64,000 bases of DNA from Candidatus Parcubacteria bacterium. Lineage in GTDB: Bacteria; Patescibacteriota; Minisyncoccia; UBA6257; 2-01-FULL-56-20. Location of the stretch: positions 3,944 to 67,943 of the forward strand of contig QZIV01000007.1 in the NCBI GenBank assembly GCA_003599135.1. The letters are read 5' to 3'. The translations under genes were made by a program, and so were the position numbers. Below are positions 14,311 through 30,589 of the stretch, one piece after another (position 1 is the first letter of the stretch; each line of letters begins with the position of its first letter). The notes beneath the pieces are model-generated. The model had not been told where the DNA came from and did no database searches. It saw only the letters and a program-made list of their open reading frames with translations.

Positions 14311-14765
14311 TGGCACGAGAGCGGGTTATCGAGCGATCGCTCTATCGGCGGATTCTTGAAGTGATCCCGATACCCTGTGTCGACATGGTCATCATCCACG
14401 GCACGCGTTTTCTTCTTGGAAAACGGAAGAATAAACCTGCGCGGGGTAAGTGGTGGCTCATCGGAGGCCGAGTGTATAAGGGAGAACTTCTCCGCAACGC
14501 AGTGTCGCGGAAAGCGAAAGAAGAAGCGGGGCTTCGTGACATAAAAATCAAGAAGCTTATTGGCGCGCGGGAAACTATGTTCAAGAACAGCGCTCAGGGA
14601 CCTTCTGCTCACACTATCAATTCGGTATTCTTAGTGGAATCCAGATCGTCGCGCCACCTTCTGCCGAACGACAATCAAAATGTCGAACTTCGGTGGTTCT
14701 CTCGAGTAGACAAAAGATGGCCGCCATACGTAAAAGAAATGATCCGTCTGGCGGGGTTTAGATAG
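14310..14765 (+). CDS. Nudix hydrolase, GDP-mannose mannosyl hydrolase-like
   Basis: A Nudix box (GGRVYKGELLRNAVSRKAKEEAGL) is present. The start overlaps the gmd stop (TAATG), the same gmd-gmm context seen in colanic-acid clusters. Confidence 0.6.
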   Translation: MARERVIERSLYRRILEVIPIPCVDMVIIHGTRFLLGKRKNKPARGKWWLIGGRVYKGELLRNAVSRKAKEEAGLRDIKIKKLIGARETMFKNSAQGPSAHTINSVFLVESRSSRHLLPNDNQNVELRWFSRVDKRWPPYVKEMIRLAGFR

Positions 14766-14836
14766 AGATATAAACCCGGATCAGAGAAAATCTATTGATA
14801 GGGAAAGCCTGGTAGTGTTATGTTATTGGGGCATTG

Positions 14837-15760
14837 ATGAACCTTCGGAGCAAAAAGATTCTTGTCACGGGGGGTGCGGGGTTCTTGGGAAAGCATGTTG
14901 TCCGGAAACTCGTCGAACACGGAGTTCCGGAAGGCAATATTGCAGTACCTCAAGCAGAGGATTGCGATCTCCGCTTCGTCGAGAACTCCCGGCGCGCCGT
15001 CCGGGGGAACGACGTAGTCGTCCACCTCGCCGGAGTTACCGGAGGAATCGAATTTCACCGGCAACATCCCGCGAGCGTCTTTTACGATAACTTGATGATG
15101 GGCGTGCAGCTCATGGAAGCGGCGCGGGAAAAAGGAGTCGAAAAATTTGTCACCATCGGGAGCGCAACCGAGTACCCCGAACGAGCACCTCTCCCTTTTA
15201 AGGAGGAGACGCTCTGGGACGGGTTTCCGGAGAAACTGCACGCGCCGTACACAGTTGCGAAGAAGATGCTTCTTGTGCAGGCGCAAGCGTATCGGAAGCA
15301 GTACAACTTCAACGCTACTCATCTGCTTCTCACCAACATGTACGGCCCCGGAGAAAAGATTGAGGAAACCAGTTTTGTAATCCCGATGCTCATCAAGCGC
15401 ATCGGAGAGGCCAAGAAAACAGGAGCAAACTTCATCGACGTATGGGGCACCGGCAGGGCAACGCGTGATTTTCTCTATGTCGAGGACGCAGCGGAGGCCA
15501 TTTTTCTTGCCGCCGAGCGATATGACAAACCCGAACCGGTTAACATCGCCTCAGGGTGGGAGATCTCGATACAAGAGCTCGTGGAGCTCATCGCGAAACT
15601 CATGGGTTTCCAGGGCGAAATTCGATGGGATACCTCGAAGCCCGAAGGCCAGCTCCGCAGGATTCTCGATGCCTCGAAAGCCGAACGGGAATTTGGATTT
15701 CGTGCAAAGGTTGATTTTGAAACCGGATTGCAGAAGACGATTCATTCTCACGGGTATTGA
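14837..15760 (+). CDS. GDP-L-fucose synthase-like NAD(P)-dependent epimerase/reductase (paralog 1)
   Basis: It has a GGAGFLG Rossmann motif, Fcl-type length and a TNMYGPGE...FVIPMLIKRI block matching the Fcl NLYGP...SHVIPALL region. The ATG is 3 nt inside the track's TTG start. Confidence 0.6.
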   Translation: MNLRSKKILVTGGAGFLGKHVVRKLVEHGVPEGNIAVPQAEDCDLRFVENSRRAVRGNDVVVHLAGVTGGIEFHRQHPASVFYDNLMMGVQLMEAAREKGVEKFVTIGSATEYPERAPLPFKEETLWDGFPEKLHAPYTVAKKMLLVQAQAYRKQYNFNATHLLLTNMYGPGEKIEETSFVIPMLIKRIGEAKKTGANFIDVWGTGRATRDFLYVEDAAEAIFLAAERYDKPEPVNIASGWEISIQELVELIAKLMGFQGEIRWDTSKPEGQLRRILDASKAEREFGFRAKVDFETGLQKTIHSHGY

Positions 15761-16708
<948 letters not shown>

Positions 16709-16717
16709 ACTCTCGTC

Positions 16718-17947
16718 ATGAAAATTGCGATTGTATGCAACAATCTCTCCTTTATTACTGGCGGGCCGCGGCTTGCTTTTGAACTGGCGAGGCATCTTGG
16801 CAAGCTTGGGCACACTGTTGTGATATACGCCCCGGATTCGGGGGGGGCGCATTTCAGCGATGTTCTCGGAGACCTCGACATCCGGGTAGTGGAAGCAAAG
16901 CCAACGGTGTCGAGATCGGGAGGTTTTTTGGGGTGGATTACCGCAAAAATTCGCGAGGAGCGCCGGGACGTGGAGCTCGCGAAGACCATTGCGAAGACAA
17001 TGGATGACGACTTTGATGTCGTGAACGTGCACGATATCGCGTATCGCACCGGCTACTTTTATAAAAAGAGGAATCCGAATGCGAAGGTGATATGGCAAGA
17101 GAACATCCCCCTATTTGTCTACGTGAAGAGAAGAAAAATCTTTCACGATATTGTGGGCGCGCTGTACTGGATTCTGAAGCGATTCATCGACCGGAAATAC
17201 TACGCCGCCATCGACGGCGTTTCCGTACTCGATAAACTTACAAAAAAACTCAGAGAAGATCGTGGCGGGAGGAACGTCCGCATCATCCGCGCCGGGATAG
17301 ATTTCGAGAAATTCTATGCCCCGGTCAAAAGTTTCCGGAGGAAGGCGGCGAAGAAAGAAGTGCATCTGCTTGCAGTGGGGGCGCTGAACGAAGCGCGCCG
17401 GTTCGACAATATCATCGAAGCAGTCCGGCTTCTCAGGGAGTGGGGATATAATGCGCGGGCGCTTATCGTGGCACACAACACGTGGCGCCAGGATAAGTGT
17501 CGGGACGATCTCATGGCACTCATAAAACGCTATCACCTCGAACCTTATGTAGTATTCCGATTCGATGGTATGCCCGAATTGGAACTTGTTGCGGCGTTCC
17601 AGGGAGCCGATATTTTCGTCCAGGCGGTATACGCCCCGCCGCCATCACACCAAGGCTGGGGGCTCGTGAACTTCGAGGCGATGTCGGCAGGGGTGCCGGT
17701 TGTCCTCATTAAGTCGTCTACCGCGGCGGAAGTGCTTGCGGATGGGGAAAATGTTTTTCTCTTCGAGCCTCTCCACCCCGAGCAGATCGCTGAGAAGATC
17801 AAGTTTCTGGTTGATTACCCCGAGATCTACGACAGCGCAGCGCGGACGGGTCAGGCTTTCGTGCGGGACAATTTGTCCTGGAGGAAGTTTGCCGAGGAGA
17901 TGCTCAGCTTTTTCGAGGATATTCGGCGTTTGCCGGAGAGGCGATAG
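16718..17947 (+). CDS. Glycosyltransferase family 4 (GT-B fold)
   Basis: The C-terminal E-x7-E region (GWGLVNFEAMSAGVPVV) is typical of GT4 retaining enzymes. Confidence 0.75.
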   Translation: MKIAIVCNNLSFITGGPRLAFELARHLGKLGHTVVIYAPDSGGAHFSDVLGDLDIRVVEAKPTVSRSGGFLGWITAKIREERRDVELAKTIAKTMDDDFDVVNVHDIAYRTGYFYKKRNPNAKVIWQENIPLFVYVKRRKIFHDIVGALYWILKRFIDRKYYAAIDGVSVLDKLTKKLREDRGGRNVRIIRAGIDFEKFYAPVKSFRRKAAKKEVHLLAVGALNEARRFDNIIEAVRLLREWGYNARALIVAHNTWRQDKCRDDLMALIKRYHLEPYVVFRFDGMPELELVAAFQGADIFVQAVYAPPPSHQGWGLVNFEAMSAGVPVVLIKSSTAAEVLADGENVFLFEPLHPEQIAEKIKFLVDYPEIYDSAARTGQAFVRDNLSWRKFAEEMLSFFEDIRRLPERR

Positions 17948-20408
17948 TGTTCCGGAGCGCCGGATATGCAAAGGAGCCGATTGCGCCGATGAGGCAGGCG
18001 AGAGAAACCGCAATGCTTGGCCAGAACCACCAGGGTTTGTATCGGAAGACGACTATGTGTTCGCCGCGCGGCAGAAAAACTCCGCGGAAAAGGACATTCG
18101 CTGGGTAAATAGAAGTTCTCTCGCCGTCGATATAAGCGTTCCAGCCGGAGTAGAACGTATCGGTCAAGACGAGTACGCCATCCCGGTCCGTTTCGCTTCG
18201 CAGTACAACCTCGTTTTCTTTGTATTCTAGGACAGTTGCTGCCACGAGGTTTTCCGTCGCGGCTCGCGGGACGAGAGAGAGAACGTTCTCATCTTCGAGG
18301 ATGACGCTCACGCGTGGATCGAACGACGGTTCGTAGAATATGCGTCGAGCTTCGGAGGGCGACGAGGCAGATCGAGTGTTAAATACCACATACGCCTTAG
18401 GAAGCACTCCGAGGTTCTCATAGATTCGAAGGTCGCGGTCGTAGATGAGGCGAAAGTCACGCGAGGCAGGGAGTTCTTGTTCCGATATGAGATATCGGAT
18501 GTTGTATGCGTCAAGAAAGTTCTTCGGGATTTCGGATAGCCGTGATGCGGGCCAAAGTCCGTCGATGGGATTTTCCTCGAGAATCGGTTGGGGGAGGAAT
18601 GAGAAGTATCTCTGTGGTTTAATAACAGAATTGTTTTGAGATCGTTGTATGCGGTAGACATCGCCGAGGTGTCCCGCAAAGACGTTCCCCACCGAAAACG
18701 TCCTCGCCACGCCTTTCTTGGAGTATTCACTTTGGAGGAATTGAACGTACGGGGGGGTTTGGGCATACGGATCAAGATAGCGGAAACCGTCCCGTACCTT
18801 CGGCATATAGAACCATAGTTCGAACGCGGTGAGGATGAGCAATGCATGCACTGCGTACCGCTGTTTCTTTTGTGCGAGAAAAAAGATGGCGAGCGCGAGG
18901 CCGCCGAAGAAGATTGCTTCGGCGAACAGTACAAGGGTGAGGTATTCGCCGTGATCTTGCATGATTCCCAAGACGAATTCTTGGAGAACGCGTGGCCAGC
19001 TTTCCGTGAGTGCGACAACTTTTTTGATCATTTCAGGCCTCCGGTTAAAGAAATCGAAATTCGGAACGTAGGTGGCGAGAAATGCGCTTTTGAAAAACGC
19101 ATATGCTCCTGCGAAAAGGACTGGGATCGTCGCAATGAGGGTGTAAAACTTTCGCCATCGTACGAGTTCTCCGCGCTCGCGTTCGCGAAGCATGTGTTCG
19201 AACGCGATTGAAGCGCAGATAACGATCGCGAGAGCCAGAGATCCGTACGCTTTATACCAGCCGATTTGTTGGAGAATAGGCAGCGTCCCTATCCAGTGCA
19301 CAATTGGGAAGCCGGCGTTTTTGAGGATGATGAATCCGATCCACGCATAGAGCGGGAAGAGTGGGAAAGGTTTTTTCTTAAGGAACAGGCTCACAAGGAA
19401 CAGGAGGATGACGCTCACACCGACGTAGGGGATAATCACTTCGTATCGGTCGAAAAGATGACCGCTCGCGGCAACTTCCGGCATCATCGTCGGAGTGATG
19501 AGGAAATGAAGAAGCTGTATCGGAGCGAAACTTGTTAATCCCTTACTCACCCACGCGGCAATGGTTCCGCCCTGCTTCCAATTGATGAGGAAATCAATAA
19601 TAAAAGGAGATGCAATCGCGCAGGCGACCGCAATAACTATCGTTGCGTGACCCACGAGTATCCACCAGTCTTTTCGTGAGGCGGTCTGCCTCGTCGCTTT
19701 CCACCCGAAGTAGAGTAAGAGGAAAAGGAACGCGATGATTGCCGATTGCGGTTGACCAACGAGAATAATAAAAGAGAACAAGATACCTATGAGCGCTGCT
19801 CGTGCAGCACTCCGTGTACGAAAGAAGTATTCGATTGAGAGGAGGGTCCACGGGAGCAGACTTTCTATGTCGAGGAAAGAGAATGTAAGATACAGCATCA
19901 AGTATCCGCAGAACATGTACGCGATGCCACCCCACAGGGCTACACTCTTTCGTAGGTCCAAGAACCGCAGATAGAGAAATGTGCCCAGCCCGGTGATGAA
20001 AAATCTGAGCAGAAAATACCAGTCGAATGCGCGCGTGGAGTCCCACAGAAAAGAAAAAATAAACCGCAAAGGATAATAAATATTTACGGGATTGTTCGGG
20101 ATCGGCGCCTCGCCGCCTCCGGAGTACGGAGTCCACAACGGCGGCACGCCTTTCTTTACCATCGCAATCTCGCTTTTAACGAGCGGAATGACATCAAGCG
20201 TATGCCACCCGCCGTCAACCTGCCACAGTGTCTTTACGTTTGGGTCGGGCGAGGGCTGCGAGTAGAACGTCGGCACCGCTTCAGTAAGAGACTGCCATCC
20301 GATCACCACGGGAAAGAAGAACAGGAGAATGATAAGCGCAAGCCAAAAACTTCCGTAGAGAAGGTCGAAGGAGAACAAAGTGCGAATGCGGTTAAGGAGA
20401 TATTGCAT
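17904..20408 (-). CDS. YfhO-like / GT-C type large polytopic membrane glycosyltransferase
   Basis: The 834-aa ORF has about 14 TM helices in the first ~530 aa and then a ~300-aa soluble C-terminal domain. It sits next to a GtrB-like GT2. Confidence 0.5.
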   Translation of the reverse strand: MQYLLNRIRTLFSFDLLYGSFWLALIILLFFFPVVIGWQSLTEAVPTFYSQPSPDPNVKTLWQVDGGWHTLDVIPLVKSEIAMVKKGVPPLWTPYSGGGEAPIPNNPVNIYYPLRFIFSFLWDSTRAFDWYFLLRFFITGLGTFLYLRFLDLRKSVALWGGIAYMFCGYLMLYLTFSFLDIESLLPWTLLSIEYFFRTRSAARAALIGILFSFIILVGQPQSAIIAFLFLLLYFGWKATRQTASRKDWWILVGHATIVIAVACAIASPFIIDFLINWKQGGTIAAWVSKGLTSFAPIQLLHFLITPTMMPEVAASGHLFDRYEVIIPYVGVSVILLFLVSLFLKKKPFPLFPLYAWIGFIILKNAGFPIVHWIGTLPILQQIGWYKAYGSLALAIVICASIAFEHMLRERERGELVRWRKFYTLIATIPVLFAGAYAFFKSAFLATYVPNFDFFNRRPEMIKKVVALTESWPRVLQEFVLGIMQDHGEYLTLVLFAEAIFFGGLALAIFFLAQKKQRYAVHALLILTAFELWFYMPKVRDGFRYLDPYAQTPPYVQFLQSEYSKKGVARTFSVGNVFAGHLGDVYRIQRSQNNSVIKPQRYFSFLPQPILEENPIDGLWPASRLSEIPKNFLDAYNIRYLISEQELPASRDFRLIYDRDLRIYENLGVLPKAYVVFNTRSASSPSEARRIFYEPSFDPRVSVILEDENVLSLVPRAATENLVAATVLEYKENEVVLRSETDRDGVLVLTDTFYSGWNAYIDGERTSIYPANVLFRGVFLPRGEHIVVFRYKPWWFWPSIAVSLACLIGAIGSFAYPALRNTIASPANAEYPRKS

Positions 20409-20429: not shown

Positions 20430-21182
20430 CTACGTTGGCTGGTGTAATTGCACGCGGAGCGCTTCGAGTTTTTTCGCGAGATGAAACCTCATCTTAACCA
20501 TCTCTTGTATCGCTCGCAGACTGTCGCTTACCATCTTTACCGTGCTTTTCCTTTCCGGATAGCGATCGTGCCAAGTAATGGGAAGTTCTTTCACAGCGAT
20601 ACCGAGCCGTTCGACAAGAAGCAGAAACTCAAGTTCAGACCACCAGGTAGGATCCTCCGTTTCGAGCATGATCGGCGTCGTTCGTTCGTTCATCATTTTG
20701 AGAGGGCACTGCGAATCGCTTGCACGGAGACCGGTGATCATTCGTGCGAGCATAAGAAATATCATTGAACTTCCGTTGCGCAAGAACGATCGTTCTTGCG
20801 CCGCGCTTTTTACAGCGAAGCGCGTGCCAACGACTACCTCACATTCACTTCCAAGAATCATTCGGAGTCCCTGTACTATCTCCTCTGGGGAGATTGGGAG
20901 GTCTGCGTCGGTAAATGCGACGACGCCTCCTCCGGCCGAACGAAAAGCTTCGCGAATCGCCCTGCCGCGCCCTTTTTCTTTGAGGCGGACCGTGCTCACA
21001 CGAGAGTCATTCATGGCGTCGACGAGGTCCGCCGTATGGTCAGTTGATGCGTTATCGGCAACGATAACGTGCCATGGGCATGGGCATAGAGCGGCAAAAG
21101 CGTCGCAGATCGTTTTTATAGTTTCGCGGATAATTGAGGCCTCGTTATACGCAGGGATAACGAGCGTGAATTTCGTGGCCAT
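20430..21182 (-). CDS. GT2 polyprenyl-phosphate glycosyltransferase (GtrB/CsbB/DPM1-like)
   Basis: VIPAYNEASII, VADNASTDHT and TDADL motifs are present in a ~250-aa soluble GT-A ORF. The ATG at 21182 is preferred over the track's TTG. Confidence 0.7.
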   Translation of the reverse strand: MATKFTLVIPAYNEASIIRETIKTICDAFAALCPCPWHVIVADNASTDHTADLVDAMNDSRVSTVRLKEKGRGRAIREAFRSAGGGVVAFTDADLPISPEEIVQGLRMILGSECEVVVGTRFAVKSAAQERSFLRNGSSMIFLMLARMITGLRASDSQCPLKMMNERTTPIMLETEDPTWWSELEFLLLVERLGIAVKELPITWHDRYPERKSTVKMVSDSLRAIQEMVKMRFHLAKKLEALRVQLHQPT

Positions 21183-21225
21183 AGAGAACAATGGTTAGTA
21201 TAGCAACGAAACTATCGCGAGCAAA

Positions 21226-23220
21226 TTATGTGATAAGGCGGGTTATTTCTTTTGCCACGGATACGGAATTTATGATTTTCCCTCCCAAAATTGAAAAACA
21301 ACCGAAACCGTGTTCCGTGACGTCCGAGGTCCTGGCATCGTCATGCTCTCTGTAGGCGTTTACTCCCCTTAACACGTAATGAATACGCAAAAGTTTTAGG
21401 TTTTTTAAAAACGGGAACCATTCCATGCTCCGGTCGATGATTTTTTTGGCGCGTGAGCGTTTGGCGCTTAGGAAAATGTTTTTCGGCACCAGACCGTCCT
21501 TGGGAACGAACCGCCGCAACACGGATTCCTTGATGTGCACGAGCGTAAATACGCCGTCGTCGTGTGTCGGGACTATATTTGTGAATTTCCCGTCCATGAC
21601 TGCGAGAGAGATTCGGGGGATATTGAGTTTGACCCACAACACCTCGACGAGGTCGAGGCGTAGGGGTTTTCGGGGGAATCCGAGCCATTTGCAGAAATTG
21701 TTGTATCGCGCGTACGTGGCGTTGATAACAGAATCAAATTGTTCCTCGTGCACAGCACCATCTTTCCTGACCCGGATGACTTTTTGTCCTGAGGGGAGTA
21801 TGCGGGCGTCGAGCACTTCGGTGTTGCGCCTCAAAGTGGCTTTCGAGCGCTTCAGTAGTTGTTCTGTAATGCGCTTAAGTTTTTTATAGTCGTAAATGGG
21901 CTCGAATGTTTTAATACACACGTCCGTTTTTTCTCGGTTCAAAAAGTTCTCTGATGGATATTCTATGACGTACGGGAGATTGTTCCTGTCGCAGAAATTC
22001 AGATATGCATCGGCGCCTACTTTCGATCCTTTTTTCGCGACGCTGTAATATGTCGGAAACTTTCTGATAATTGCTTTTGCATAGCGCTGTTCGAATTCGT
22101 TGATTGCTGAAAAAATGTCATCGACTGTTTTTTGACTCCGCGGGTAATGATATCCCCAGTGGTGCCGATATTGGTTTATCTTAGAAGCCTCGGAGAAAAT
22201 ATCCCCATTCTTTTCAAAGATCGTTACGTCGCAGTAGGGAGCAAGTTCGATTGCGCAGTTTGTCCCGAAGATGCCGCCCCCGATTATCGCAACTTTCCTC
22301 TTTGTGGGAGCTCCGGAAACGGATTTGCGTCCCATCGTTGCGACACGTACGATGCGGTGGCCGACGTCTGCGTCGGGATATTCGACTTTTTTCGAACGCA
22401 TAGCGCGCACAAATGTGCGTAGTTCGGCCTCAAGAGGAGACATGGGATCACTGCAGTCAATACGTTCTGCCACCGATCCATTTTTGTAGATGTGGATAGC
22501 GTTTTTCTCAAGGTCGCAAACCATGGTTTTGCTAGGAAATTGCAGGGTAACTATCCTCTTCTTTTCTTTGCCGGACCAGCCGATTTTGAGCAACGCATGT
22601 ATTCCTCGTTTATATACTAGACTGACCACGTGCATCCGGCCTTTGTCGTCCACGTTTTTTCTGGTTGGCATGGCGTCGAAGACGTAGTCGAGCATATCGA
22701 AGGGATGGAGCATCTCCAGTTCAACATCTCTTCCGGTATCGGTAGCGGCGGGGTTGATGAATTCGATCTGTACGGAACTCGGACGTTCTTTGATGGACCG
22801 AAGCAGTTTTCGGAGACGGATTATTGTCGGGTTGAAGCGGAATATATGCCCCACCATAAGAATATGGGGAGACTCTGCGGCGCGCTTTTTGAGCATCGCC
22901 GTTTCGTGTACCGTCGAGGCGAGCGGTTTTTCGACAAAGACGTTCACCCTCGGAAGACATTGAGATACGAGAGAAAAATGCGTGTTGGGCGGCGTCGCGA
23001 TATCTACGGCGTCAACACCGTCAAGGAGTGGCGGATCGAGCGCGTGATAAATAGGAAGCCTGTATTTTTTCTTTAGACGCTGCTCCTCGGTGACTGTACG
23101 CACAACCACGCCAGCAACCACAAGGACACCTTTTTCCCCGAGACCGATCAATGTTTCGAGGTGTTTTATTCCGAATCTGCCCGCACCTATGAGGAGGATG
23201 CGGGGTTTTTTCATGGGCAT
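21226..23220 (-). CDS. Fusion protein: N-terminal Gfo/Idh/MocA NAD(P)-oxidoreductase plus C-terminal FAD-dependent (DAO-like) oxidoreductase
   Basis: The N-terminus has KPRILLIGAGRFGIKHL...EKPLA (Gfo/Idh/MocA). From about residue 340 a second dinucleotide fold begins with KVAIIGGGIFGTNCAIELA (FAD GxGxxG). It is one uninterrupted ORF. Confidence 0.6.
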   Translation of the reverse strand: MPMKKPRILLIGAGRFGIKHLETLIGLGEKGVLVVAGVVVRTVTEEQRLKKKYRLPIYHALDPPLLDGVDAVDIATPPNTHFSLVSQCLPRVNVFVEKPLASTVHETAMLKKRAAESPHILMVGHIFRFNPTIIRLRKLLRSIKERPSSVQIEFINPAATDTGRDVELEMLHPFDMLDYVFDAMPTRKNVDDKGRMHVVSLVYKRGIHALLKIGWSGKEKKRIVTLQFPSKTMVCDLEKNAIHIYKNGSVAERIDCSDPMSPLEAELRTFVRAMRSKKVEYPDADVGHRIVRVATMGRKSVSGAPTKRKVAIIGGGIFGTNCAIELAPYCDVTIFEKNGDIFSEASKINQYRHHWGYHYPRSQKTVDDIFSAINEFEQRYAKAIIRKFPTYYSVAKKGSKVGADAYLNFCDRNNLPYVIEYPSENFLNREKTDVCIKTFEPIYDYKKLKRITEQLLKRSKATLRRNTEVLDARILPSGQKVIRVRKDGAVHEEQFDSVINATYARYNNFCKWLGFPRKPLRLDLVEVLWVKLNIPRISLAVMDGKFTNIVPTHDDGVFTLVHIKESVLRRFVPKDGLVPKNIFLSAKRSRAKKIIDRSMEWFPFLKNLKLLRIHYVLRGVNAYREHDDARTSDVTEHGFGCFSILGGKIINSVSVAKEITRLIT

Positions 23221-23222
23221 GG

Positions 23223-24146
23223 ATGATAGTATACCAATACATATTCGGAAAGAAATATGACGGTTACGAGAACCTGTCGCGCATGTGGTATAGTGATTTC
23301 TATCGCAACAGGCGTTCGCGCAATGCGGCGCGACATTCACACGTGTTCAAGAGATATCTTATACGGTTATATACGATTCTTCGGCGCAGTATTTTCGGCG
23401 GCCGCGGTTTGTCGAGATACAGAATTCTTCGCGAGCTCAATTTTCGTCTGGAGCGTTTTCTGCGCGGCGGAAGGAGAGAATATGTGGACTGCAAGGGACT
23501 GCGTTTTTTTCTTGACCCGAGGGGATCGCTCTCTCAGCCGTTTCACGAATACGAACCCGAGACGACTTCTTTCATCGAAAAAAACCTGAAAAACGGAGAC
23601 TTTTTCGTGGACGTGGGAGCTTCAATAGGATGGTTTACACTCATTGCTTCAAGAATCGTTGGAAAAGGAGGAGTCATCGCCGTTGAACCGAATCCAGTGG
23701 AGGCAGCTCTGTTGCGGAAAAATGTTGAGTACAATGCTTGTACGAATGTCGAGGTTATTGAGAGAGCCGCTGGAAACACCCGCGAGCGTCGGATTCTCTA
23801 TGTTGTTTCCGATATGCACACGGGGGGATCTCTGGAAGACCCGCGCATCGATCCAAGGAGGGATCCATCAGCACACCTTCTGGATTCCGAGGATCATACG
23901 GTCTACGAATACCCGGTTGAGGTTATACCCCTCGACGCCGTTGTTTCCCGTGCTAGTATGATAAAAATTGACGTTGAGGGGGCGGAATTCGAAGTCGTGA
24001 AGGGAATGTCTCAGGTTTTGCGACAGTATAGACCAATAGTCATTCTCGAACATCCGTCGCCGAAAACCAGGAGATTGATAGGATCCCTTGGTTACAAGGA
24101 AAAGTTTTTTTTCGATAAACTGAACACGGTTTTCTTCGCGTCATAG
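23223..24146 (+). CDS. FkbM-family SAM-dependent methyltransferase
   Basis: The FVDVGASIGWFTLIAS glycine-rich SAM motif matches the FkbM domain architecture. Confidence 0.65.
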   Translation: MIVYQYIFGKKYDGYENLSRMWYSDFYRNRRSRNAARHSHVFKRYLIRLYTILRRSIFGGRGLSRYRILRELNFRLERFLRGGRREYVDCKGLRFFLDPRGSLSQPFHEYEPETTSFIEKNLKNGDFFVDVGASIGWFTLIASRIVGKGGVIAVEPNPVEAALLRKNVEYNACTNVEVIERAAGNTRERRILYVVSDMHTGGSLEDPRIDPRRDPSAHLLDSEDHTVYEYPVEVIPLDAVVSRASMIKIDVEGAEFEVVKGMSQVLRQYRPIVILEHPSPKTRRLIGSLGYKEKFFFDKLNTVFFAS

Positions 24147-24152
24147 AACAGA

Positions 24153-25124
24153 ATGATCTATAGCGATATTAAAAGCTTCAATAAACAGTTTGCGTGGGAC
24201 CGACATATCGAGAATGCCCGCGCGTTGAAGAAATTCAGGAACTATATTGTTATCGGCATGGGCGGTTCGCATTTTGCCGCCGATCTCATAAAAACCTGGC
24301 GACCGGATTTTCCAGTCGTCGTGTGGTCGAATTACGGCCTCCCTCCGTTGGCTCGTAAGGGGCTAAAAAAGAGCCTAGTTATCGCCACTTCTTATTCTGG
24401 GAACACGGAAGAAACAATTGACGCGCTCGAGTTAGCACTCAAGCGTAAGTTGAATATTGCTGTCATAGCGTCCGGCGGAAAACTGATTGCCATGGCCCGT
24501 AAATTTGGGATACCCTATGTCCTTGTTCCATCCGGCATCCAGCCGAGAGCGGCTCTGGGATACCTCCTCGTAGCGACGCTCACGGTCATGGGCGAGAAAC
24601 GGGCGCTGCGCGGTCTTCGCGAGCTTGCGGGAACGTTGCGCCCGGGTCGCTACGAGCAACAAGGGAAGAGTCTCGCGCGAAGACTGAGAAGAAGTGTACC
24701 CGTAATCTACGCTTCACCCAGAAATTATTCGGTCGCCTACAACTGGAAGATAAGACTCAACGAAACAGGAAAAATCCCAGCTTTCTATCACTTGGTGCCG
24801 GAGATGAATCACAATGAAATGATCGGTTTTGATGTGAACCGGAGCACGGTGTCTCTCTCCCGGCGTTTTCACTTCATTTTCCTTGAAGACCCCGACGACG
24901 ATCCGCGGATTCTGAAGAGAATGCGCGTGACGAGGAAACTCTTCGCAGGGCGTGGATTTCGGTCGGATGCAGTTCCACTCCGAGGCAGAAACGTTTGGGA
25001 GAAAGTGTTTTCCTCCATCGTTCTCGCGGATTGGGCATCGTACCATGTAGCAAGGCAATACCACTCCGAACCGGAAGCCGTAGCGATGATTGAAAAGTTC
25101 AAAAAACTGATTGCGAAGCAGTAA
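24153..25124 (+). CDS. Bifunctional phosphoglucose/phosphomannose isomerase family (SIS domain)
   Basis: IVIGMGGSHFAADL and a second SIS-like half occur in a ~320-aa ORF, as in archaeal-type PGI/PMI. Confidence 0.6.
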   Translation: MIYSDIKSFNKQFAWDRHIENARALKKFRNYIVIGMGGSHFAADLIKTWRPDFPVVVWSNYGLPPLARKGLKKSLVIATSYSGNTEETIDALELALKRKLNIAVIASGGKLIAMARKFGIPYVLVPSGIQPRAALGYLLVATLTVMGEKRALRGLRELAGTLRPGRYEQQGKSLARRLRRSVPVIYASPRNYSVAYNWKIRLNETGKIPAFYHLVPEMNHNEMIGFDVNRSTVSLSRRFHFIFLEDPDDDPRILKRMRVTRKLFAGRGFRSDAVPLRGRNVWEKVFSSIVLADWASYHVARQYHSEPEAVAMIEKFKKLIAKQ

Positions 25125-25179: not shown

Positions 25180-26232
25180 ATGCGCGCCTTATTATTCCGG
25201 GGACCTAACGACTATCGCGTCGAAGAACGGCCATTGCCGCAGATTGTCGAGGGCGACGTGTTGCTTAAGATCATCGCTTGCGGGCTCTGCGGCACCGACG
25301 TGAAGGTTCTTGGCAACGGCCACCGTGCGGTAAAGCCCCCGATGACGACGGGACACGAGATCGTGGGAGAAGTTGAGGAATCGAAATCGAGTGCGGCAGG
25401 AGTCGCGAAGGGGGACAACGTTCTTGTCGTGGCTCCAATCGGCTGCATGAAATGTAATTTTTGCCTTCGGGGAGAGCAGAATATTTGCCCAGTTGTCGTA
25501 GAGAGCGTACATGCTTTTGGCTACGATACCGACGGAGGATTTGCCGAGTACATGCGCGTACCGAAGGAAGCCGCCGACCAAGGCGTGCTTATCAAGATCC
25601 CGGAAACTTCGATTCCGCTTGCGTCATTCGCGATCGCGGAGCCGTTGGCTTGCGTCTTGAATGGCCAGGAAAAACTTCATATCTGTCCCGATGACACTGT
25701 TGTCGTGATCGGCGCGGGACCCATCGGGGTTCTACATGTGGTCGCGGCCCGGGCCGAAGGTGCGAAGAAGGTTATTCTTGCAGATGTGAATCCCGCAAAG
25801 CTCTCGCTTGCTGCTGGTGTTTGTGCCGACGCGCTTGTCGACAGCTCGAAAGAAAACCTTGTCGAACGCGTCCGCAAGGAAACGGAGGGACGCGGAGCGG
25901 ATGTCGTAATCGTCGCGGCGCCGGCGCCGTCGCTTCAGACCGAAGCAATCGAAATGGCGGCAGTCCGTGGGCGCGTGTCATTCTTCGCGGGTCTTGCGAA
26001 AGGAACTACATCGCCGCCTATCGATACGAACGCCATCCATTACCGCGAGATCGAGGTCTACGGGGCCTTCGGCGCGTGCCGGAAGCAGTATGAAAAAGCG
26101 ATGCACCTCATTCTTGACGGGAAGGTTAACCCTGCGCAGCTTATCACGCACACATTGCCGCTCGAAGACATTGAAAAAGCCGTGGATCTCATGAAGGCGG
26201 GACAGACGATTAAGGTTGTGATCGTGCCGTGA
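25180..26232 (+). CDS. Zn-dependent medium-chain polyol(-phosphate) dehydrogenase (sorbitol/threonine/galactitol-1-P dehydrogenase family; TarJ-like context)
   Basis: It has the GLCGTDV catalytic-Zn motif, a Cys cluster (CMKCNFCLRGEQNIC) for structural Zn, a DGGFAEY block and a GAGPIG Rossmann motif. Confidence 0.75.
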   Translation: MRALLFRGPNDYRVEERPLPQIVEGDVLLKIIACGLCGTDVKVLGNGHRAVKPPMTTGHEIVGEVEESKSSAAGVAKGDNVLVVAPIGCMKCNFCLRGEQNICPVVVESVHAFGYDTDGGFAEYMRVPKEAADQGVLIKIPETSIPLASFAIAEPLACVLNGQEKLHICPDDTVVVIGAGPIGVLHVVAARAEGAKKVILADVNPAKLSLAAGVCADALVDSSKENLVERVRKETEGRGADVVIVAAPAPSLQTEAIEMAAVRGRVSFFAGLAKGTTSPPIDTNAIHYREIEVYGAFGACRKQYEKAMHLILDGKVNPAQLITHTLPLEDIEKAVDLMKAGQTIKVVIVP

Positions 26233-26954
26233 ATATTGTCATTCCTTTGGCCGGCAAGGATCCGCGGTTTGTGGACATGCCTAAGGCCCTCGTCGACGTT
26301 TGCGGCAAGCTTTTTATTGCTCACATTCTTAAGCAACTCCGCATTGAACCCGAAGATCGTTTGATTTTTGTCGTGTTGGAAGAAGATGTGAAGAAATTTA
26401 ATATTGACGAAACACTAAAGAATGTCACGGGGAAGCGCGCAATCATTCGGGTTCTTCCTCGTGCGACGCAGGGGTCGCCGTGCTCGATTTTAGAAGCCGC
26501 GCGGGACTTGATTGATAACGAGACAGATCTTTTAATAGAACTCGGCGACGTGTTGCGAGATGTCGGCAATCTCTATCAAGATATCGCGGATCGTCGCTCC
26601 GAGGTTTCAGGGATCATCCCTGTTGAGCGGCGAGATATGACAGGCCGTCTTTTCGGCTACGTGCGTGCCGACGAAGAAGGGTTTGCGGAGGCGCTCCTCG
26701 AAAAGGAAGCAACGTACGTCGCTCCGTGGGCGACGATGGGGCTGTATTATTTTTCTCGCGGCAAAGATTTTGTCTGGGCAGCCGAGGAGATGATACGGAA
26801 ACGCAGTTTCGTTCATAACGACATGTTTTTCGTCGGGCCGGTGTATAATGAGCTGGTGAAGCGAGGAGATAAGGTTATTCTTTCACAGAATACCGTCAAG
26901 GCAGTGTTGGGGAGTCCAGAAGAAGTCGAAGCGTTCCACAAACAATGTGTTTGA
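26229..26954 (+). CDS. IspD/MobA-like sugar- or polyol-phosphate nucleotidyl(cytidylyl)transferase
   Basis: The GTG start overlaps the ADH stop (GTGA). The N-terminal IPLAGK...KAL..V.GK.LI.H motif has an NTP_transferase-like fold and the arrangement parallels tarI-tarJ. Confidence 0.55.
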   Translation: MNIVIPLAGKDPRFVDMPKALVDVCGKLFIAHILKQLRIEPEDRLIFVVLEEDVKKFNIDETLKNVTGKRAIIRVLPRATQGSPCSILEAARDLIDNETDLLIELGDVLRDVGNLYQDIADRRSEVSGIIPVERRDMTGRLFGYVRADEEGFAEALLEKEATYVAPWATMGLYYFSRGKDFVWAAEEMIRKRSFVHNDMFFVGPVYNELVKRGDKVILSQNTVKAVLGSPEEVEAFHKQCV

Positions 26955-27714
26955 GATTTTCGCGCATCGGGGGTTGATCGACGAATACCCCGAAAACAGC
27001 CTTCCGGCGCTTCGGGAAAGTTTTCGACGCGGTTTTGGGGTGGAAACCGATCTGCGCCTTACGAAAGACGGGGACTTCCTGATCATTCACGACGATACGT
27101 CTCTTCGGCTTATAGGGATGCGCCGGCGAGTTGAGGATGCAACTTTAAAAGAAGCTGAAACAATGCAGTATGCTCATTCCGATGAGCACCTCATCTCATT
27201 TCGCACATTTCTTACGATGGCCGCAAAAGAAAATAAGGGACACCAGATGGCCATTCATCTTAAAGCAGATGCCCAAGATGAGGCGGGACTTACTCTACTT
27301 GCAAAGTATTGGCGGGAATTTGATCTCTATAAAACGGCCTTTACGTTCGATCTTACGAAAAAAGCTGCAGTGTGTCTCAAAGAAATCGATCCTAAAATAC
27401 AAATTGCGCTTATCATTTCAGAATTCAAATTTGAACCGACAATTTACACGTGGGAAGAGGTTAAGGATTTTAAGCCCATGGATATTGTCTGGGCTGCCGA
27501 ATATAAGAAACTCTACAGTAAAAAGTTTATTGATGAGGTAAAAGCAACGGGGAGAACATTTTATGCAATGTCTCCAGATGTGCATTGGATTTTGAATCAC
27601 CCCTTGGGCTATGAGGGATACGAGAAAACGTGGGATGATCTCATTGCATGGGGCGCGGATGGAATTTGTACGGATTATCCGGAAAAACTCGCTAAATGTC
27701 TTACTCGTGGTTAG
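26947..27714 (+). CDS. Glycerophosphodiester phosphodiesterase (GDPD) family protein
   Basis: FAHRG...ENS.PA and E.DL..TKDG...HD motifs of the GDPD TIM-barrel are present. A GTG start is inferred. Confidence 0.65.
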   Translation: MFEIFAHRGLIDEYPENSLPALRESFRRGFGVETDLRLTKDGDFLIIHDDTSLRLIGMRRRVEDATLKEAETMQYAHSDEHLISFRTFLTMAAKENKGHQMAIHLKADAQDEAGLTLLAKYWREFDLYKTAFTFDLTKKAAVCLKEIDPKIQIALIISEFKFEPTIYTWEEVKDFKPMDIVWAAEYKKLYSKKFIDEVKATGRTFYAMSPDVHWILNHPLGYEGYEKTWDDLIAWGADGICTDYPEKLAKCLTRG

Positions 27715-27729
27715 GATATACCCAAACGT

Positions 27730-28476
27730 ATGAAAATCGTTATGCCGATGGCTGGCCGGGGGTCAAGATTTGCGAAAGCGGGCATCACGCAACCAAAGCC
27801 CCTGATTGAAGTACTTGGGAAAACCTTGGTTCAGTGGTCGGTTGAAGGAATGAAGATTACAAATCCCGGACTTGAGGACAAAGATTTTGTGTTCGTCTGC
27901 CACGCGGATCACGAGCGAGATTTCAAAATCGGCGAGAAACTGAGAGAGATAGTAGGACCGGGTATTGCTGTTCTTTTCACCCCAGTTGTTACAGAAGGCG
28001 CGGCGTGCACCGTGCTTTTGGCGAAAAAAGTAATTGACCCTGACGAAGATATGCTTATGTGCGACTCGGATCACTTTGTGGTATGCCCAGCGTTTCGGAG
28101 CGCTCGCGAAGAATCTCGGAAGCACGACTGGGGCGGCATCATTCCAACAATCGAAAGAGACAAGCCGCACTATTCCTATGCGCGCCTTGACGATCGAGGT
28201 AATGTGGTTGAAACCCGCGAGAAGCAGATGATTTCGACGCATGCCGCCGCGCTGTACTACTTCACGAAATGGAAATATTTTGTCTCTGCAGCAGAAGCGA
28301 TGATCGCGAAGAACGAGCGGCACAACAACGAATTCTATATGTGTCCTGTATACAACCACATCATTGCACAGGGACGCGTTGTGCGCACGGTGCCGGTTGA
28401 ACTCGCAATGCACCTCGGAACGCCGGAAGAAATGCAGTACTTCGTCGAACATGTCCCTATGCAGTATCGGACCTGA
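27730..28476 (+). CDS. Sugar-phosphate nucleotidyltransferase
   Basis: The N-terminus has MPMAGRGSRF...KPL (G-x-G-x-R nucleotide-binding loop) in a 248-aa ORF. Confidence 0.65.
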   Translation: MKIVMPMAGRGSRFAKAGITQPKPLIEVLGKTLVQWSVEGMKITNPGLEDKDFVFVCHADHERDFKIGEKLREIVGPGIAVLFTPVVTEGAACTVLLAKKVIDPDEDMLMCDSDHFVVCPAFRSAREESRKHDWGGIIPTIERDKPHYSYARLDDRGNVVETREKQMISTHAAALYYFTKWKYFVSAAEAMIAKNERHNNEFYMCPVYNHIIAQGRVVRTVPVELAMHLGTPEEMQYFVEHVPMQYRT

Positions 28477-28512: not shown

Positions 28513-29376
28513 ATGCGATTGGGACGGTTGGTACTCACACATCGCGAGAAGTACATCGAGAAGCTCAAAAAGTTCTATCTCGATGCGAAGCGCACAGAGT
28601 TTTTGGTGGTTGCGTATAACCAGAAGACCGTTGATGTTTCGCGGTTCACTTCAACGGATTCGTTCAAACTAGTGCCTTACTGTGCGGGGGCAGAAGGCGA
28701 GTGTAGCGCGACGGGCCGGCAGTACCGCGTGTGGCTTTCCCACATAAAGCAATTTCCGGAAATCGAAGGATGGGTGGTGCATGATTACGATCTCGTCTGC
28801 CGCGTGCCAGACCGAGAGATTTTCTCGCGCATCAAACCAGATGAATACGCAATGATCGGAAAGGCTTTCCCTGTCCGGCAGGAAGGCATGAAGGATGCGG
28901 GCGTTGATACTTTCCCGTTCGCGCAAGATCATCGCCATTGGCATAAATTGAATCCTCCGAATCCAGTTGACGAAGAGGTGGATGCATTGCTCATGCGCAG
29001 ATTTCCGCATACATTTCAAGGCATCAAGACGATTTTGGGAGGTTACAGCGATTTTATTGCTACGTCGCGCAAGAATTTTTTACTACTTGACGATCCTGCA
29101 GTTAAGGATTTCTCCGCTGGAGGCAACGAGCAGATTCCGCATAGCATTTGGGGCGCAAAAGGGATACAGCCCGTCGATCTCAGGCCATGGTATAAGATGA
29201 AAATATCGCTTGACGTGATGTACATGCCGATGGATGCCCGCTACGACATGATTCACCCTGTAAAAATATGGGAAGGTGAGAGTGTTCCGCCTCGAGAGCG
29301 CGCCGGCAACGTAAAGCGGAAGCTCAAAAACTTCGTGAAATGGCTTATTGGCTATCAGGGCTGGAAGCGGACATAG
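28513..29376 (+). CDS. Hypothetical protein; possible divergent GT-A-like transferase
   Basis: No clear family. LVVAYNQ followed about 50 aa later by HDYDL loosely recalls a GT-A beta-strand plus DxD arrangement. It lies inside the sugar cluster. Confidence 0.3.
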   Translation: MRLGRLVLTHREKYIEKLKKFYLDAKRTEFLVVAYNQKTVDVSRFTSTDSFKLVPYCAGAEGECSATGRQYRVWLSHIKQFPEIEGWVVHDYDLVCRVPDREIFSRIKPDEYAMIGKAFPVRQEGMKDAGVDTFPFAQDHRHWHKLNPPNPVDEEVDALLMRRFPHTFQGIKTILGGYSDFIATSRKNFLLLDDPAVKDFSAGGNEQIPHSIWGAKGIQPVDLRPWYKMKISLDVMYMPMDARYDMIHPVKIWEGESVPPRERAGNVKRKLKNFVKWLIGYQGWKRT

Positions 29377-29428: not shown

Positions 29429-30589
29429 ATGAAGCACACCGATCGTCTTGACGTTCTCCTCAAAGCGCGGCAATGCACCTTATTGGGCATAGGTCCGATG
29501 AGCAAGCTTTGTGTCGATGCTACGATAGAAATTGCGAACGAGCTTGATATCCCGCTCATGCTCATCGCCTCAAGGCGCCAGATCGAGGCTGCATCCCACG
29601 GCGGAGGGTACGTCAACGGCTGGACTACAGAAACTTTTGCAGAGTACGTGCGCACGCATGACGCGAAGTCCAATGTGCTTTTGGCGCGCGATCACGGCGG
29701 CCCGTGGCAGAATTATTCTGAGGTGAAAGGGGGCTTGAATCTCCAAGAAGCGATGAAATCCGCGAAGCAGTCTTATGAAACCGACATCAAATCGGGTTTC
29801 GATATGATTCACATTGATCCCTCGATCGACATTCACAAGCGCCCGTCATTCGAGGAGGTGCTGGAGCGACTTTTCGAACTTTATCTTCATTGCGTGGAAT
29901 ACGCCCGCTCGTTGGGGAAAGAAGTGTTTTTCGAATTCGGTACCGATGAGCAGGGGGAAGGGCTACATGACCTGGAAGAGCTAGAAGCTCTCACGGAAGA
30001 AATTACGGATTTCTGCAGCAAACACCGCCTCCCAAAACCTTATTTTGTAGTGGCACAGACGGGAGCTAAAGTGAAAGAAACGAAAAACGTCGGCGTCATT
30101 GCCGACCCCGGTGAATCTGGGGCAGTCAAAGCACAGCTCAAAAAGCTTGTTGCTATCTGTAACCGCTATGGCGTACGACTCAAAGGTCATAATGGCGACT
30201 ATTTATCAGACGATACTCTTCGGTGGCATCCTGAAATCGGTATTCATGCCCTGAACGTTGCTCCGGAGTTCGGCGTTGCGGAGACAAAGGCGCTCATCAA
30301 GGTGTGCGATGATCTTGGCCTCAAAAGCGAGCGAGATCAATTTCTCACGCTTGCTCTCAATTCCCGCAAGTGGGACAAGTGGCTTCTCGCCGATACAAAA
30401 GCCACGGATTTCGATCGTGCAGTGATTGCCGGTCATTATGTGTTTGCGACGCCGGAGTTTACGAAGATTAAAGCTCGAATTGCCTTTGCAAGCCGCGCCC
30501 GAGGATTGGATCTCGATCAGTACTTGAAGGAAGCAATTAAGTCGTCTATCATGCGCTATGTGTCAAGTTTGAACTTATCTCATGGTTGA
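29429..30589 (+). CDS. GatZ/KbaZ-family protein (tagatose-6-phosphate 4-epimerase / tagatose-bisphosphate aldolase accessory family)
   Basis: Blocks IASRRQIEA...GGGYVNGWT.ETF.EYV, LLARDHGGPW and FDMIHIDPS align with GatZ blocks IEATSNQV..FGGYTGMTP.DFREFV, ILGGDHLGPNCW and FSKIHLDAS. Confidence 0.7.
   Translation: MKHTDRLDVLLKARQCTLLGIGPMSKLCVDATIEIANELDIPLMLIASRRQIEAASHGGGYVNGWTTETFAEYVRTHDAKSNVLLARDHGGPWQNYSEVKGGLNLQEAMKSAKQSYETDIKSGFDMIHIDPSIDIHKRPSFEEVLERLFELYLHCVEYARSLGKEVFFEFGTDEQGEGLHDLEELEALTEEITDFCSKHRLPKPYFVVAQTGAKVKETKNVGVIADPGESGAVKAQLKKLVAICNRYGVRLKGHNGDYLSDDTLRWHPEIGIHALNVAPEFGVAETKALIKVCDDLGLKSERDQFLTLALNSRKWDKWLLADTKATDFDRAVIAGHYVFATPEFTKIKARIAFASRARGLDLDQYLKEAIKSSIMRYVSSLNLSHG

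Follow-up and report, generated by a model that had tools for sequence, protein, structure and literature searches.

A Gfo/Idh/MocA–flavoenzyme fusion protein in a glycan island of Candidatus Parcubacteria and its possible role in sugar epimerisation

Why should a dehydrogenase of the Gfo/Idh/MocA family and a flavoenzyme be joined in a single polypeptide, and what could such a protein do among glycan genes? The question is raised by a gene of Candidatus Parcubacteria bacterium, located in a stretch of 64,000 nucleotides (GenBank assembly GCA_003599135.1, contig QZIV01000007.1, positions 3,944 to 67,943) that was analysed as a whole and is called the window below. The original prediction described one uninterrupted open reading frame (ORF) with an N-terminal Gfo/Idh/MocA domain and a second, DAO-like domain binding flavin adenine dinucleotide (FAD), and suggested that the latter could be a built-in module that recycles the cofactor of the former by way of 2-hydroxyglutarate (2-HG). 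The ORF is present and lies on the minus strand, which the prediction had not stated, and both domains exceeded the Pfam gathering scores in a domain search: GFO_IDH_MocA (PF01408) at residues 7-125, corresponding to profile positions 2-120 (E 7.5e-18; 65.8 bits, with a gathering cutoff of 24), and DAO (PF01266) at residues 309-556 (E 2.3e-12; 47.5 bits against a gathering cutoff of 27.9). Residues are numbered from the ATG of the 664-aa protein (MPMKKPRILL); the longest possible ORF reaches upstream to a GTG at 23340 and would encode 704 aa. Both motifs quoted in the prediction, EKP and KVAIIGGGIFG, are found in the translation (Table 1). The FAD-type GxGxxG was recognized correctly, but it starts at residue 314 and not near residue 340, a figure that fits the 704-aa ORF.

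Tentatively, we propose that the fusion protein is a cytoplasmic two-cofactor sugar-modifying enzyme whose two domains act on the same glycan-precursor sugar. Our preferred reading, to which we assign a probability of roughly 40%, is, by analogy with a known pair of enzymes, a two-step epimerase, in which the FAD domain would oxidise a sugar carbinol and the Gfo domain would reduce the resulting ketone with NADPH.

The protein is identical to NCBI entry P0001, named 'FAD-dependent oxidoreductase [Candidatus Parcubacteria bacterium]', and the source names of the family members say just 'FAD-dependent oxidoreductase' or 'predicted dehydrogenase'. A homologue search over 5.8 billion proteins gave 436 matches, and the best 120 of these, examined for architecture, were 38-63% identical to the fusion, about 650-720 aa long or longer, and carried both Pfam domains in every case. 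When 1.84 billion representatives were searched exhaustively with a profile, 1,181 clusters (50% identity) were returned at E <=1e-30, and many stand-alone halves scored high in this search. With one genome per species scanned, relatives were encoded by 163 GTDB species genomes. Cultured isolates among the hosts are Mycobacterium spp. IS-836 and IS-1264, Synechococcus Cruz-7E5 and Methyloversatilis XJ19-49, and further hosts belong to many lineages of the Candidate Phyla Radiation (CPR), DPANN archaea, Acidobacteriota, Burkholderiales, Planctomycetota and SAR86. This is a large, unstudied enzyme family at the core of surface-glycan operons in CPR and DPANN organisms, the envelopes of which are almost unknown.

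None of the curated family models covers the fusion proteins. The literature searched, which was thin on subscription journals, held neither a description of a Gfo-FAD fusion nor a published function for the family, in agreement with the earlier remark that the domain combination was undescribed. Both domain families and the two-step logic are already known; what appears to be new is the combination of domains, the apparent sugar substrate of the flavoenzyme and its place in lipid-carrier glycosylation.

The two halves and their catalytic residues

The N-terminal half carries a complete set of Gfo/Idh/MocA residues. G12, G14 and G17 of the Rossmann motif GAGRFG are conserved in at least 90% of homologues, and both the catalytic Lys of the EKP motif and the downstream His and Asp of the substrate domain are present, with K98, H172 and D175 invariant or nearly so. 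The closest solved relative by every method was GnnA (7bvj), the UDP-GlcNAc 3-dehydrogenase of Acidithiobacillus ferrooxidans (phmmer, 1.9e-12; profile search, 5.6e-28; Foldseek, 1e-21 with a TM of 0.86), and WlbA was also among the matches, which bears out the predicted likeness to nucleotide-sugar 3-dehydrogenases of the WbpB type. On NF040723, the model of archaeal UDP-GlcNAc 3-dehydrogenase, the half scored 84.3 bits against a cutoff of 450, and its sequence therefore places it as a relative of that family and not as a member. GnnA has an acidic, NAD-type residue pair at the cofactor-specificity position (Asp-Glu in GVFDE), whereas the fusion has GVVVRT, which aligns with VGRR of NADP-bound PmdC; across 56 homologues, the two specificity positions hold R or K in 35 and T or S in 43. 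From these residues, we infer a preference for NADP(H). The fusion further differs from GnnA and WbpB/WlbA in its attached flavoenzyme and in having no partner aminotransferase in the window, where tblastn with DegT from related loci found none. Other sugar ketoreductases and dehydrogenases of the Gfo/Idh/MocA family (KijD10, AFR and GenD2) are single-domain proteins with 15-19% identity and other substrates.

In the C-terminal half, the FAD-binding elements (GGGIFG...FE and HGFGC.S.LGGK) are complete, although the original prediction had considered that closer alignment might find them lacking; G314, G316 and G319 are invariant, and F335 and E336 are conserved in at least 90%. The half has the two-domain fold of the family named after D-amino acid oxidase (DAAO). 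Shortly after the nucleotide-binding motif lies the signature NQYRHHWGYHYPRS (residues 349-362), which is invariant across the family. In the HMMER alignment with Mycoplasma glycerol 3-phosphate oxidase (mpGlpO), the signature lies over NSGVIHTG and the invariant H354 aligns with His51. In the hhalign comparison with E. coli GlpD, which was short and of 21% probability, H354 falls on His50 and H358/Y359 fall on Arg54/Tyr55; H358, Y359 and R361, in this same region, are likewise invariant. His51 of mpGlpO and His92 of L-2-hydroxyglutarate dehydrogenase (L2HGDH) are the Lewis bases that deprotonate the C2-hydroxyl of the substrate (PMC10726252). Since H354 is aligned with the catalytic His of GlpO, L2HGDH and GlpD, the flavin half is, as judged from its sequence, equipped for the oxidation of a secondary alcohol as in these enzymes. 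Amine-oxidase chemistry was also considered and is less likely, given the conserved GlpO/L2HGDH-type His.

The remainder of the C-terminal half is strongly divergent. No PDB relative was detectable by sequence beyond its first ~55 residues: the profile match to 4x9m spans ~50 residues only, and NF033460 (type 2 GlpO) scored 23.5 bits against a cutoff of 460, at residues 309-358 only. Among the NCBIfam models, no match to LhgO was found. It is likewise only about the first 55 residues that align with GlpO/GlpD and L2HGDH/LhgO, the substrate-binding domain being too divergent to map; no curated GlpO or LhgO model was matched above its threshold, and the motif NQYRHHWGYHYPRS was not seen in these enzymes. 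Ser88 of L2HGDH, which binds the C1-carboxylate four residues before the His, corresponds to Q350 here and to Q or C in the relatives (NQYRHH or NCFRHH). An hhalign run directed at the residues that bind 2-oxoglutarate in L2HGDH (Tyr289, His302 and Arg393) compared the C-half profile with E. coli LhgD; it matched 69 columns only, with 24% probability and without the active-site region, and a search for LhgO homologues that could sharpen the profile returned only enterobacterial sequences of at least 86% identity. In structural comparison, the half was about equidistant from several members of the DAAO family, namely glycine oxidase (31.1), the LhgO-like Bp3253 (30.6), L-proline dehydrogenase (30.6), mpGlpO (29.9), GlpD (27.3) and Drosophila L2HGDH (26.8), the last of which is not a preferred neighbour. 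The C-terminal half is a divergent branch of the DAAO family that keeps the alcohol-oxidising His.

The AlphaFold2 (AF2) model of the whole chain, built on a 56-sequence alignment, is confident over both domains (pLDDT 93.4, pTM 0.89), with a lower score in the linker only (residues 296-307). For a pair of domains with 300 and 360 residues, such a pTM implies a defined inter-domain arrangement.

Architectural variants and gene neighbourhoods

The two modules also occur in other arrangements. In split orthologues from DPANN archaea (loci L084 and L085), the Gfo gene reaches 250-290 bits with the N-half profile and shares a 4-bp overlap with a 358-aa FAD gene, and in locus L093 both halves are separate, each adjoining a family 2 glycosyltransferase (GT2). 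Fusions in the reverse order, FAD-Gfo, are represented by P0315 and P0372 and arose independently. Fusions to glycosyltransferases comprise GT4-Gfo-FAD (P0069) and Gfo-FAD-GNT-I-like (P0030) proteins. On the evidence of the split-adjacent, reverse-order and glycosyltransferase-fused forms, the Gfo and FAD modules clearly work together. Two further proteins are of unusual build: in P0312 the fusion is embedded at residues 114-805 of a 1357-aa protein, and in P0356 (705 aa) the FAD half is preceded by a 320-aa N-terminal region with no Pfam match.

FAD-only forms were found in four loci (L079 and L081-L083), in which no orthologous Gfo gene lies within 7 kb and the gene occupies the same operon slot after a GT2. 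Their closest relatives are fused forms (53-59% identity), among which they are nested phylogenetically, so that the Gfo domain was lost secondarily. An ArnC-like GT2 is even fused to the FAD module, without Gfo, in P0282, whose gene immediately follows one for a DegT aminotransferase within a heptose cassette. DegT occurs within 7 kb in 3 of the 4 FAD-only loci and in 4 of the 65 fused loci (Fisher p=0.0026, for loci that are phylogenetically non-independent), and again in L090. In L082, the genes for DegT, GT2, the FAD protein and HddA are chained by 4-bp overlaps, with no other dehydrogenase within 7 kb that would supply DegT with its keto-sugar. This pattern reads as the exchange of a reductase for an aminotransferase acting on a common keto intermediate. 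The FAD module is thus found working in a sugar pathway without the Gfo module, beside or fused to a lipid-carrier GT2 and together with an aminotransferase. A second fusion recurs in heptose cassettes with FAD-only or GT2-FAD forms: a protein of ~538 aa, in which a region resembling UDP-glucose/GDP-mannose dehydrogenase at the N-terminus is joined to a class I methyltransferase (L081:10541-12157 and L090:12319-13938).

For the neighbourhoods of relatives, 80 loci were taken from the species genomes, ORFs were called crudely and the neighbours were clustered. The commonest specific partner was an ArnC-like GT2 (cluster c1), which occurred in 31 of 81 loci, 26 of its genes lying immediately beside the fusion; the GT2 of the window belongs to the same cluster. 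About 20 CPR loci share the order nucleotidyltransferase, B12-radical-SAM enzyme, GT2, fusion, GmhB, HddA, GmhA and transaldolase, with GtrA-like and large membrane proteins close to this conserved operon, which looks like a glycero-manno-heptose nucleotide pathway feeding lipid-carrier glycosylation. In other lineages, the glycosyltransferase neighbours are GT4 enzymes, a GNT-I-like family and a family weakly similar to RXYLT1. FkbM methyltransferases (cluster c9) occur in 11 loci of Bacteria and Archaea, including Nanoarchaeota. In Mycobacterium, the gene belongs to a cluster of the glycolipid type, together with GT1 enzymes, an adjacent methyltransferase with the FkbM domain (Methyltransf_21) and GMC oxidoreductases.

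Two other neighbours recur. One is a conserved protein of ~315 aa with no family assignment and a sub-threshold match to RXYLT1_C, which is encoded divergently from the fusion and directly upstream of it in L026, L027, L029, L030, L064, L067 and L086, and is also found in L092 (495-1412). It is present in several CPR lineages (Saccharibacteria, Paceibacterota and Taylorbacteria), often with an FkbM methyltransferase, and may represent a new glycosyltransferase family. The other is a paralogous stand-alone Gfo/Idh/MocA gene directly upstream of the full-length fusion in L037, L041 and L043 (SAR86 cluster, Halioglobus), where it is itself preceded by genes for a short-chain dehydrogenase/reductase (SDR) and a sugar C-methyltransferase.

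In the window, a three-gene minus-strand operon begins with the fusion, with the GT2 gene ~35 bp downstream and a gene for a YfhO-like membrane protein a further 21 bp downstream (Table 1). The best curated matches of the GT2 are all polyprenyl-phosphate glycosyltransferases (NCBIfam ArnC 2e-13, AglJ 3.5e-12 and PpgS 4.5e-11), and the YfhO-like protein would be of the GT-C type. The same succession within one operon, of an ArnC/GtrB-like GT2 and then a membrane protein of the GT-C type, is shared with CsbB/YfhO, with the GtrA/GtrB/Gtr* systems and with the Arn pathway (ArnA-ArnB-ArnC-ArnT). The resemblance to the Gtr systems extends to the GtrA-like gene near relatives of the fusion, a homologue of which was not found in the window, and the resemblance to the Arn pathway extends to the order of DegT (ArnB-like) and GT2 (ArnC-like) beside the FAD-only relatives. 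Unlike these loci, the CsbB/YfhO, Gtr and Arn systems include neither a flavoenzyme nor an oxidoreductase of the Gfo type. The 26 kb around the operon make up a glycan island, which encodes GDP-mannose 4,6-dehydratase, isomerases of the phosphomannose isomerase (PMI) type, many SDR epimerases or reductases, a sugar C-methyltransferase, GT4 enzymes and an O-antigen-ligase-like protein; the fusion thus stands in a glycan locus, as the original prediction supposed.

A proposed two-step epimerisation and competing explanations

Considering these residues and associations, we propose the following course for the reaction. The DAAO-type FAD domain would oxidise the secondary hydroxyl adjoining the phosphate-bearing carbon, with H354 as the base and hydride transfer to the flavin as in GlpO, GlpD and L2HGDH. 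At the C2 hydroxyl of a glycosyl phosphate, the HO-C-C-O-P arrangement matches that at C2 of glycerol 3-phosphate, and a GlpO-like active site should therefore be chemically apt for it. The fused GnnA-like Gfo domain, using NADP(H), would then reduce the ketone from the opposite face, and the net result would be an essentially irreversible epimerisation that follows the logic of DprE1 (FAD oxidase) and DprE2 (NADH reductase), with unrelated folds. The substrate would be the activated sugar of the adjacent ArnC-like GT2, either the nucleotide sugar that it consumes or the polyprenyl-phosphate sugar that it makes. In the window, where heptose genes are absent, the Gmd and PMI genes suggest a GDP-manno-type substrate, probably a hexose or 6-deoxyhexose, and in most CPR relatives the substrate would be glycero-manno-heptose. 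The YfhO-like GT-C protein would next carry out the transfer of the product outside the membrane, and in the FAD-only variants the same ketone would be transaminated by DegT to an amino sugar. The analysis shows which domains are present, their catalytic residues, the conservation of the fusion and its gene associations; in this scheme, we infer the directions of the half-reactions, which carbon is attacked (C2 or C3), what the substrate is and which electron acceptor reoxidises FADH2.

The model for this proposal comes from Mycobacterium, in which DprE1 and DprE2 turn decaprenyl-phosphoryl-ribose into its arabinose counterpart, which serves GT-C transferases. Among epimerases that act on lipid-linked side-chain donors, DprE1/E2 and one SDR are the only ones listed in a 2024 study of three-component systems (PMC11127046). 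The proposed reading shares with this pair an FAD oxidase and an NAD(P)H reductase, the synthesis of a polyprenyl-phosphate sugar, the use of GT-C transferases and the two-step logic. In contrast to the fusion, the Mycobacterium pair consists of two separate proteins and acts on a ribofuranose. DprE1 is a flavoprotein of the vanillyl-alcohol-oxidase type (FAD_binding_4/VAO) and DprE2 is an SDR, and as the fusion is built of PF01266 and PF01408 domains, the relationship would be a functional analogy and not membership. In its most complete form, the proposal describes a convergent counterpart of DprE1/DprE2: a usually fused DAAO flavoenzyme and Gfo reductase that irreversibly epimerises a heptose or hexose, linked to polyprenyl phosphate or to GDP, at the hydroxyl adjoining the anomeric phosphate and yields an undescribed donor for extracytoplasmic GT-C glycosylation, the same keto intermediate being turned into an amino sugar in the FAD-only variants. 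It would be widespread in CPR and DPANN and scattered in Actinobacteria, Proteobacteria, Acidobacteria and Cyanobacteria. This complete form is somewhat unlikely to hold as a whole. If the epimerase reading is true, the family would be a third kind of epimerase for lipid-carrier side-chain glycosylation, after DprE1/E2 and one SDR, and would include the first DAAO-fold flavoenzyme to oxidise a sugar, pointing to new surface sugars of CPR bacteria.

Several points weigh against an epimerase. We know of no DAAO-fold enzyme that oxidises a ring hydroxyl of a sugar, and the likeness to DprE1/E2 is one of analogy between different folds. An acceptor for the electrons of FADH2 is not evident, and the CPR and DPANN organisms, which make up many of the hosts, are generally regarded as being without respiratory chains. 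Other Gfo genes (cluster c28) are present in some FAD-only loci (L083 and L090), and it is possible that a partner dehydrogenase for the FAD-only forms is encoded elsewhere. The family also stands beside GT4, GNT-I-like and RXYLT1-like transferases, and in Mycobacterium beside GT1 enzymes without an ArnC-like GT2, so a lipid-linked substrate cannot be general; the gene-context counts themselves come from crude ORF calls in loci that are phylogenetically non-independent. The NADP preference rests on a few residues, with Asp at position 42 in 4 of the 56 sequences. Finally, the solved nucleotide-sugar relatives of the N-terminal half have all been described as C3 dehydrogenases or reductases, and the Gfo half could therefore be the oxidant.

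This last point leads to the cofactor-recycling module of the original prediction, which we now consider unlikely. Here, the Gfo half would be a 3-dehydrogenase of the WbpB/GnnA type with tightly bound NAD(H) that is reoxidised by 2-ketoglutarate, and the fused FAD half would reoxidise 2-HG or another small hydroxy acid, passing the electrons to O2 or another acceptor and pulling an unfavourable sugar oxidation forward. There is experimental precedent: WbpB, which has tightly bound NADH and reduces 2-ketoglutarate, relies on a separate FAD-dependent dehydrogenase for 2-HG, and loss of this D-2-HG dehydrogenase impairs the synthesis of lipopolysaccharide (PMC8651671). The status of GnnA as best structural and sequence relative of the N-terminal half (with WlbA also matched), the fold family and catalytic His shared by the C-terminal half with L2HGDH, and the cooperation of the modules in fused, reverse-fused and split-adjacent forms all suit such a shuttle. 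The stereochemistry does not, as WbpB makes D-2-HG, the substrate of D2HGDH (PMC8651671), which differs from the DAAO-fold L2HGDH with its L-specificity (PMC10726252). Of the substrate-binding residues of L2HGDH, the catalytic His alone is recognizable, Ser88 being replaced by Gln350; no NCBIfam LhgO match was obtained, and the hhalign run against E. coli LhgD gave no alignment of the active site. The Gfo pocket appears to be of the NADP type and lacks the acidic residue of GnnA, no aminotransferase is encoded in the 64-kb window, and DegT is near just 4 of the 65 fused loci. The idea of a recycling module is also weakened by the FAD-only genes and the GT2-FAD fusion without an orthologous Gfo module, since a 2-HG oxidase would have no reason to outlast its Gfo partner or to become fused to a glycosyltransferase. 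The other Gfo genes in some FAD-only loci (L083 and L090) are the reason why we have not lowered our estimate further. If it were true, this would be the first covalently built-in 2-ketoglutarate/2-HG cofactor shuttle. A direct passage of hydride to the flavin from the NAD(P)H of the Gfo half was also considered and was dropped for want of support; the cofactor sites of Gfo and DAAO enzymes are normally buried in their own substrate pockets.

It is similarly unlikely that the halves catalyse two different redox steps on the sugar, for example C3 oxidation by the Gfo half and a flavin-dependent oxidation or reduction elsewhere, to give a keto, diketo, deoxy or branched sugar for later methylation or transfer. 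Catalytic residues are retained in both domains, the FAD module is able to act in the absence of the Gfo module, and the FkbM O-methyltransferases, sugar C-methyltransferases and B12-radical-SAM enzymes that recur nearby point to heavily tailored sugars. That the modules are fused in both orders and are modelled confidently with a rigid interface suggests, on the other hand, that a shared and probably unstable intermediate is handed over, and where DegT takes the place of Gfo in FAD-only loci, a single keto intermediate is the simplest account. Moreover, no match points to a specific chemistry of this kind.

An epimerisation before activation, with a sugar phosphate or alditol phosphate as the substrate in place of a nucleotide- or lipid-linked sugar, is likewise improbable. 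The GlpO-like half would oxidise the penultimate hydroxyl next to a terminal CH2-O-phosphate, and the Gfo half would reduce the ketone, turning a D-glycero heptose into its L-glycero form or epimerising an alditol phosphate. C6 of glycero-manno-heptose 7-phosphate, for example, is locally identical to glycerol 3-phosphate; the catalytic His of GlpO/GlpD is kept, with conserved residues at the position of GlpD Arg54/Tyr55, and GmhA, HddA, GmhB, transaldolase and nucleotidyltransferase genes surround the gene in ~20 CPR loci. In the window itself, the overlap of a Zn-dependent alcohol dehydrogenase (Zn-ADH) gene with a nucleotidyltransferase gene, together with a phosphoglucose/phosphomannose isomerase (PGI/PMI) and a glycerophosphodiester phosphodiesterase, suggests alditol- or glycerol-phosphate chemistry. 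Against this, the most constant partners are glycosyltransferases, including GT2, GT4 and GNT-I-like fusions, which indicates an activated donor or a transferred sugar; many loci, including that of Mycobacterium and the window, are without heptose-phosphate genes; and the nearest solved relatives of the N-terminal half bind nucleotide sugars.

Finally, the joining of two neighbouring genes through a sequencing or assembly error, conceivable for a metagenome-assembled CPR genome and in view of a few frameshifted-looking relatives, is effectively excluded by the constant architecture and length of the best 120 homologues down to 38% identity, by their origin in independent assemblies and cultured isolates, and by the confident modelling of linker and both domains as a single chain. 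In two metagenome-assembled genomes, the fusion gene is split into two ORFs or shortened (L048:490-2443 and L066:6875-7999), and these broken genes could be frameshifts, pseudogenes or assembly errors.

Other genes of the glycan island

The positions of the fusion, its domains and motifs, its operon and the other genes of interest are collected in Table 1.

Table 1. Positions of the fusion gene, its parts and neighbouring genes in the window
Feature	Position	Strand	Description
Gfo/Idh/MocA-DAAO fusion ORF	21226..23220	minus	664 aa plus stop codon; ORF list, Pfam, AF2
Gfo/Idh/MocA domain, aa 1-300	22321..23220	minus	GAGRFG, EKP, H172/D175, beta2 end GVVVRT
EKP motif (E97 K98 P99)	22924..22932	minus	invariant in 56/56 homologues; K98 catalytic Lys
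DAAO-family FAD domain, aa 305-664	21229..22308	minus	GGGIFG...FE and C-terminal HGFGC.S.LGGK
FAD motif KVAIIGGGIFG	22264-22296	minus	GxGxxG from residue 314
Signature NQYRHHWGYHYPRS, aa 349-362	22135..22176	minus	HMMER alignment, hhalign, invariance, translation
GT2 glycosyltransferase, polyprenyl-phosphate class (ArnC/AglJ/PpgS-like)	20430..21191	minus	253 aa; Pfam Glycos_transf_2 4.2e-23
YfhO-like membrane protein	17904..20408	minus	834 aa; Pfam YfhO 4.8e-07, barely above gathering score, C-terminal part only
FkbM-family methyltransferase	23223..24146	plus	Pfam Methyltransf_21 3e-19; divergent, abuts fusion start
GDP-mannose 4,6-dehydratase, NUDIX protein, two SDR epimerases/reductases	13291-16708	plus	dehydratase E 1.9e-137
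PGI/PMI	24153-25124		just upstream of Zn-ADH
Zn-ADH	25180-26232	plus	overlaps next gene by 4 bp
Nucleotidyltransferase	26229-26954	plus	
Glycerophosphodiester phosphodiesterase	26947-27714		
Second nucleotidyltransferase	27730-28476		
287-aa ORF	28513-29376	plus	no Pfam match at E up to 0.01
GatZ/KbaZ-like protein	29429-30589	plus	tagatose-bisphosphate aldolase subunit family; 32.6 bits, E 4.6e-08
Cupin	30582-31067		mannose-6-phosphate isomerase C-terminal type
Three more SDR epimerases, sugar C-methyltransferase	31943-35944	plus	Methyltransf_13/14

The dehydratase group and, further on, the SDR/C-methyltransferase group suggest that 6-deoxy and C-branched sugars are made there. The pair formed by Zn-ADH and the first nucleotidyltransferase resembles, with its surroundings, a CDP-alditol pathway of the TarJ/TarI type. 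Further along the island follow the 287-aa ORF and the GatZ/KbaZ-like gene, the latter within the block of sugar-nucleotide genes and followed by that for the cupin. A scan of 17.5-24.5 kb for promoters and terminators gave nothing beyond the expectation from shuffled sequence. Over the window as a whole (1-64000), the GC skew is positive in all 2-kb bins, and the cumulative skew climbs steadily from one end to the other.

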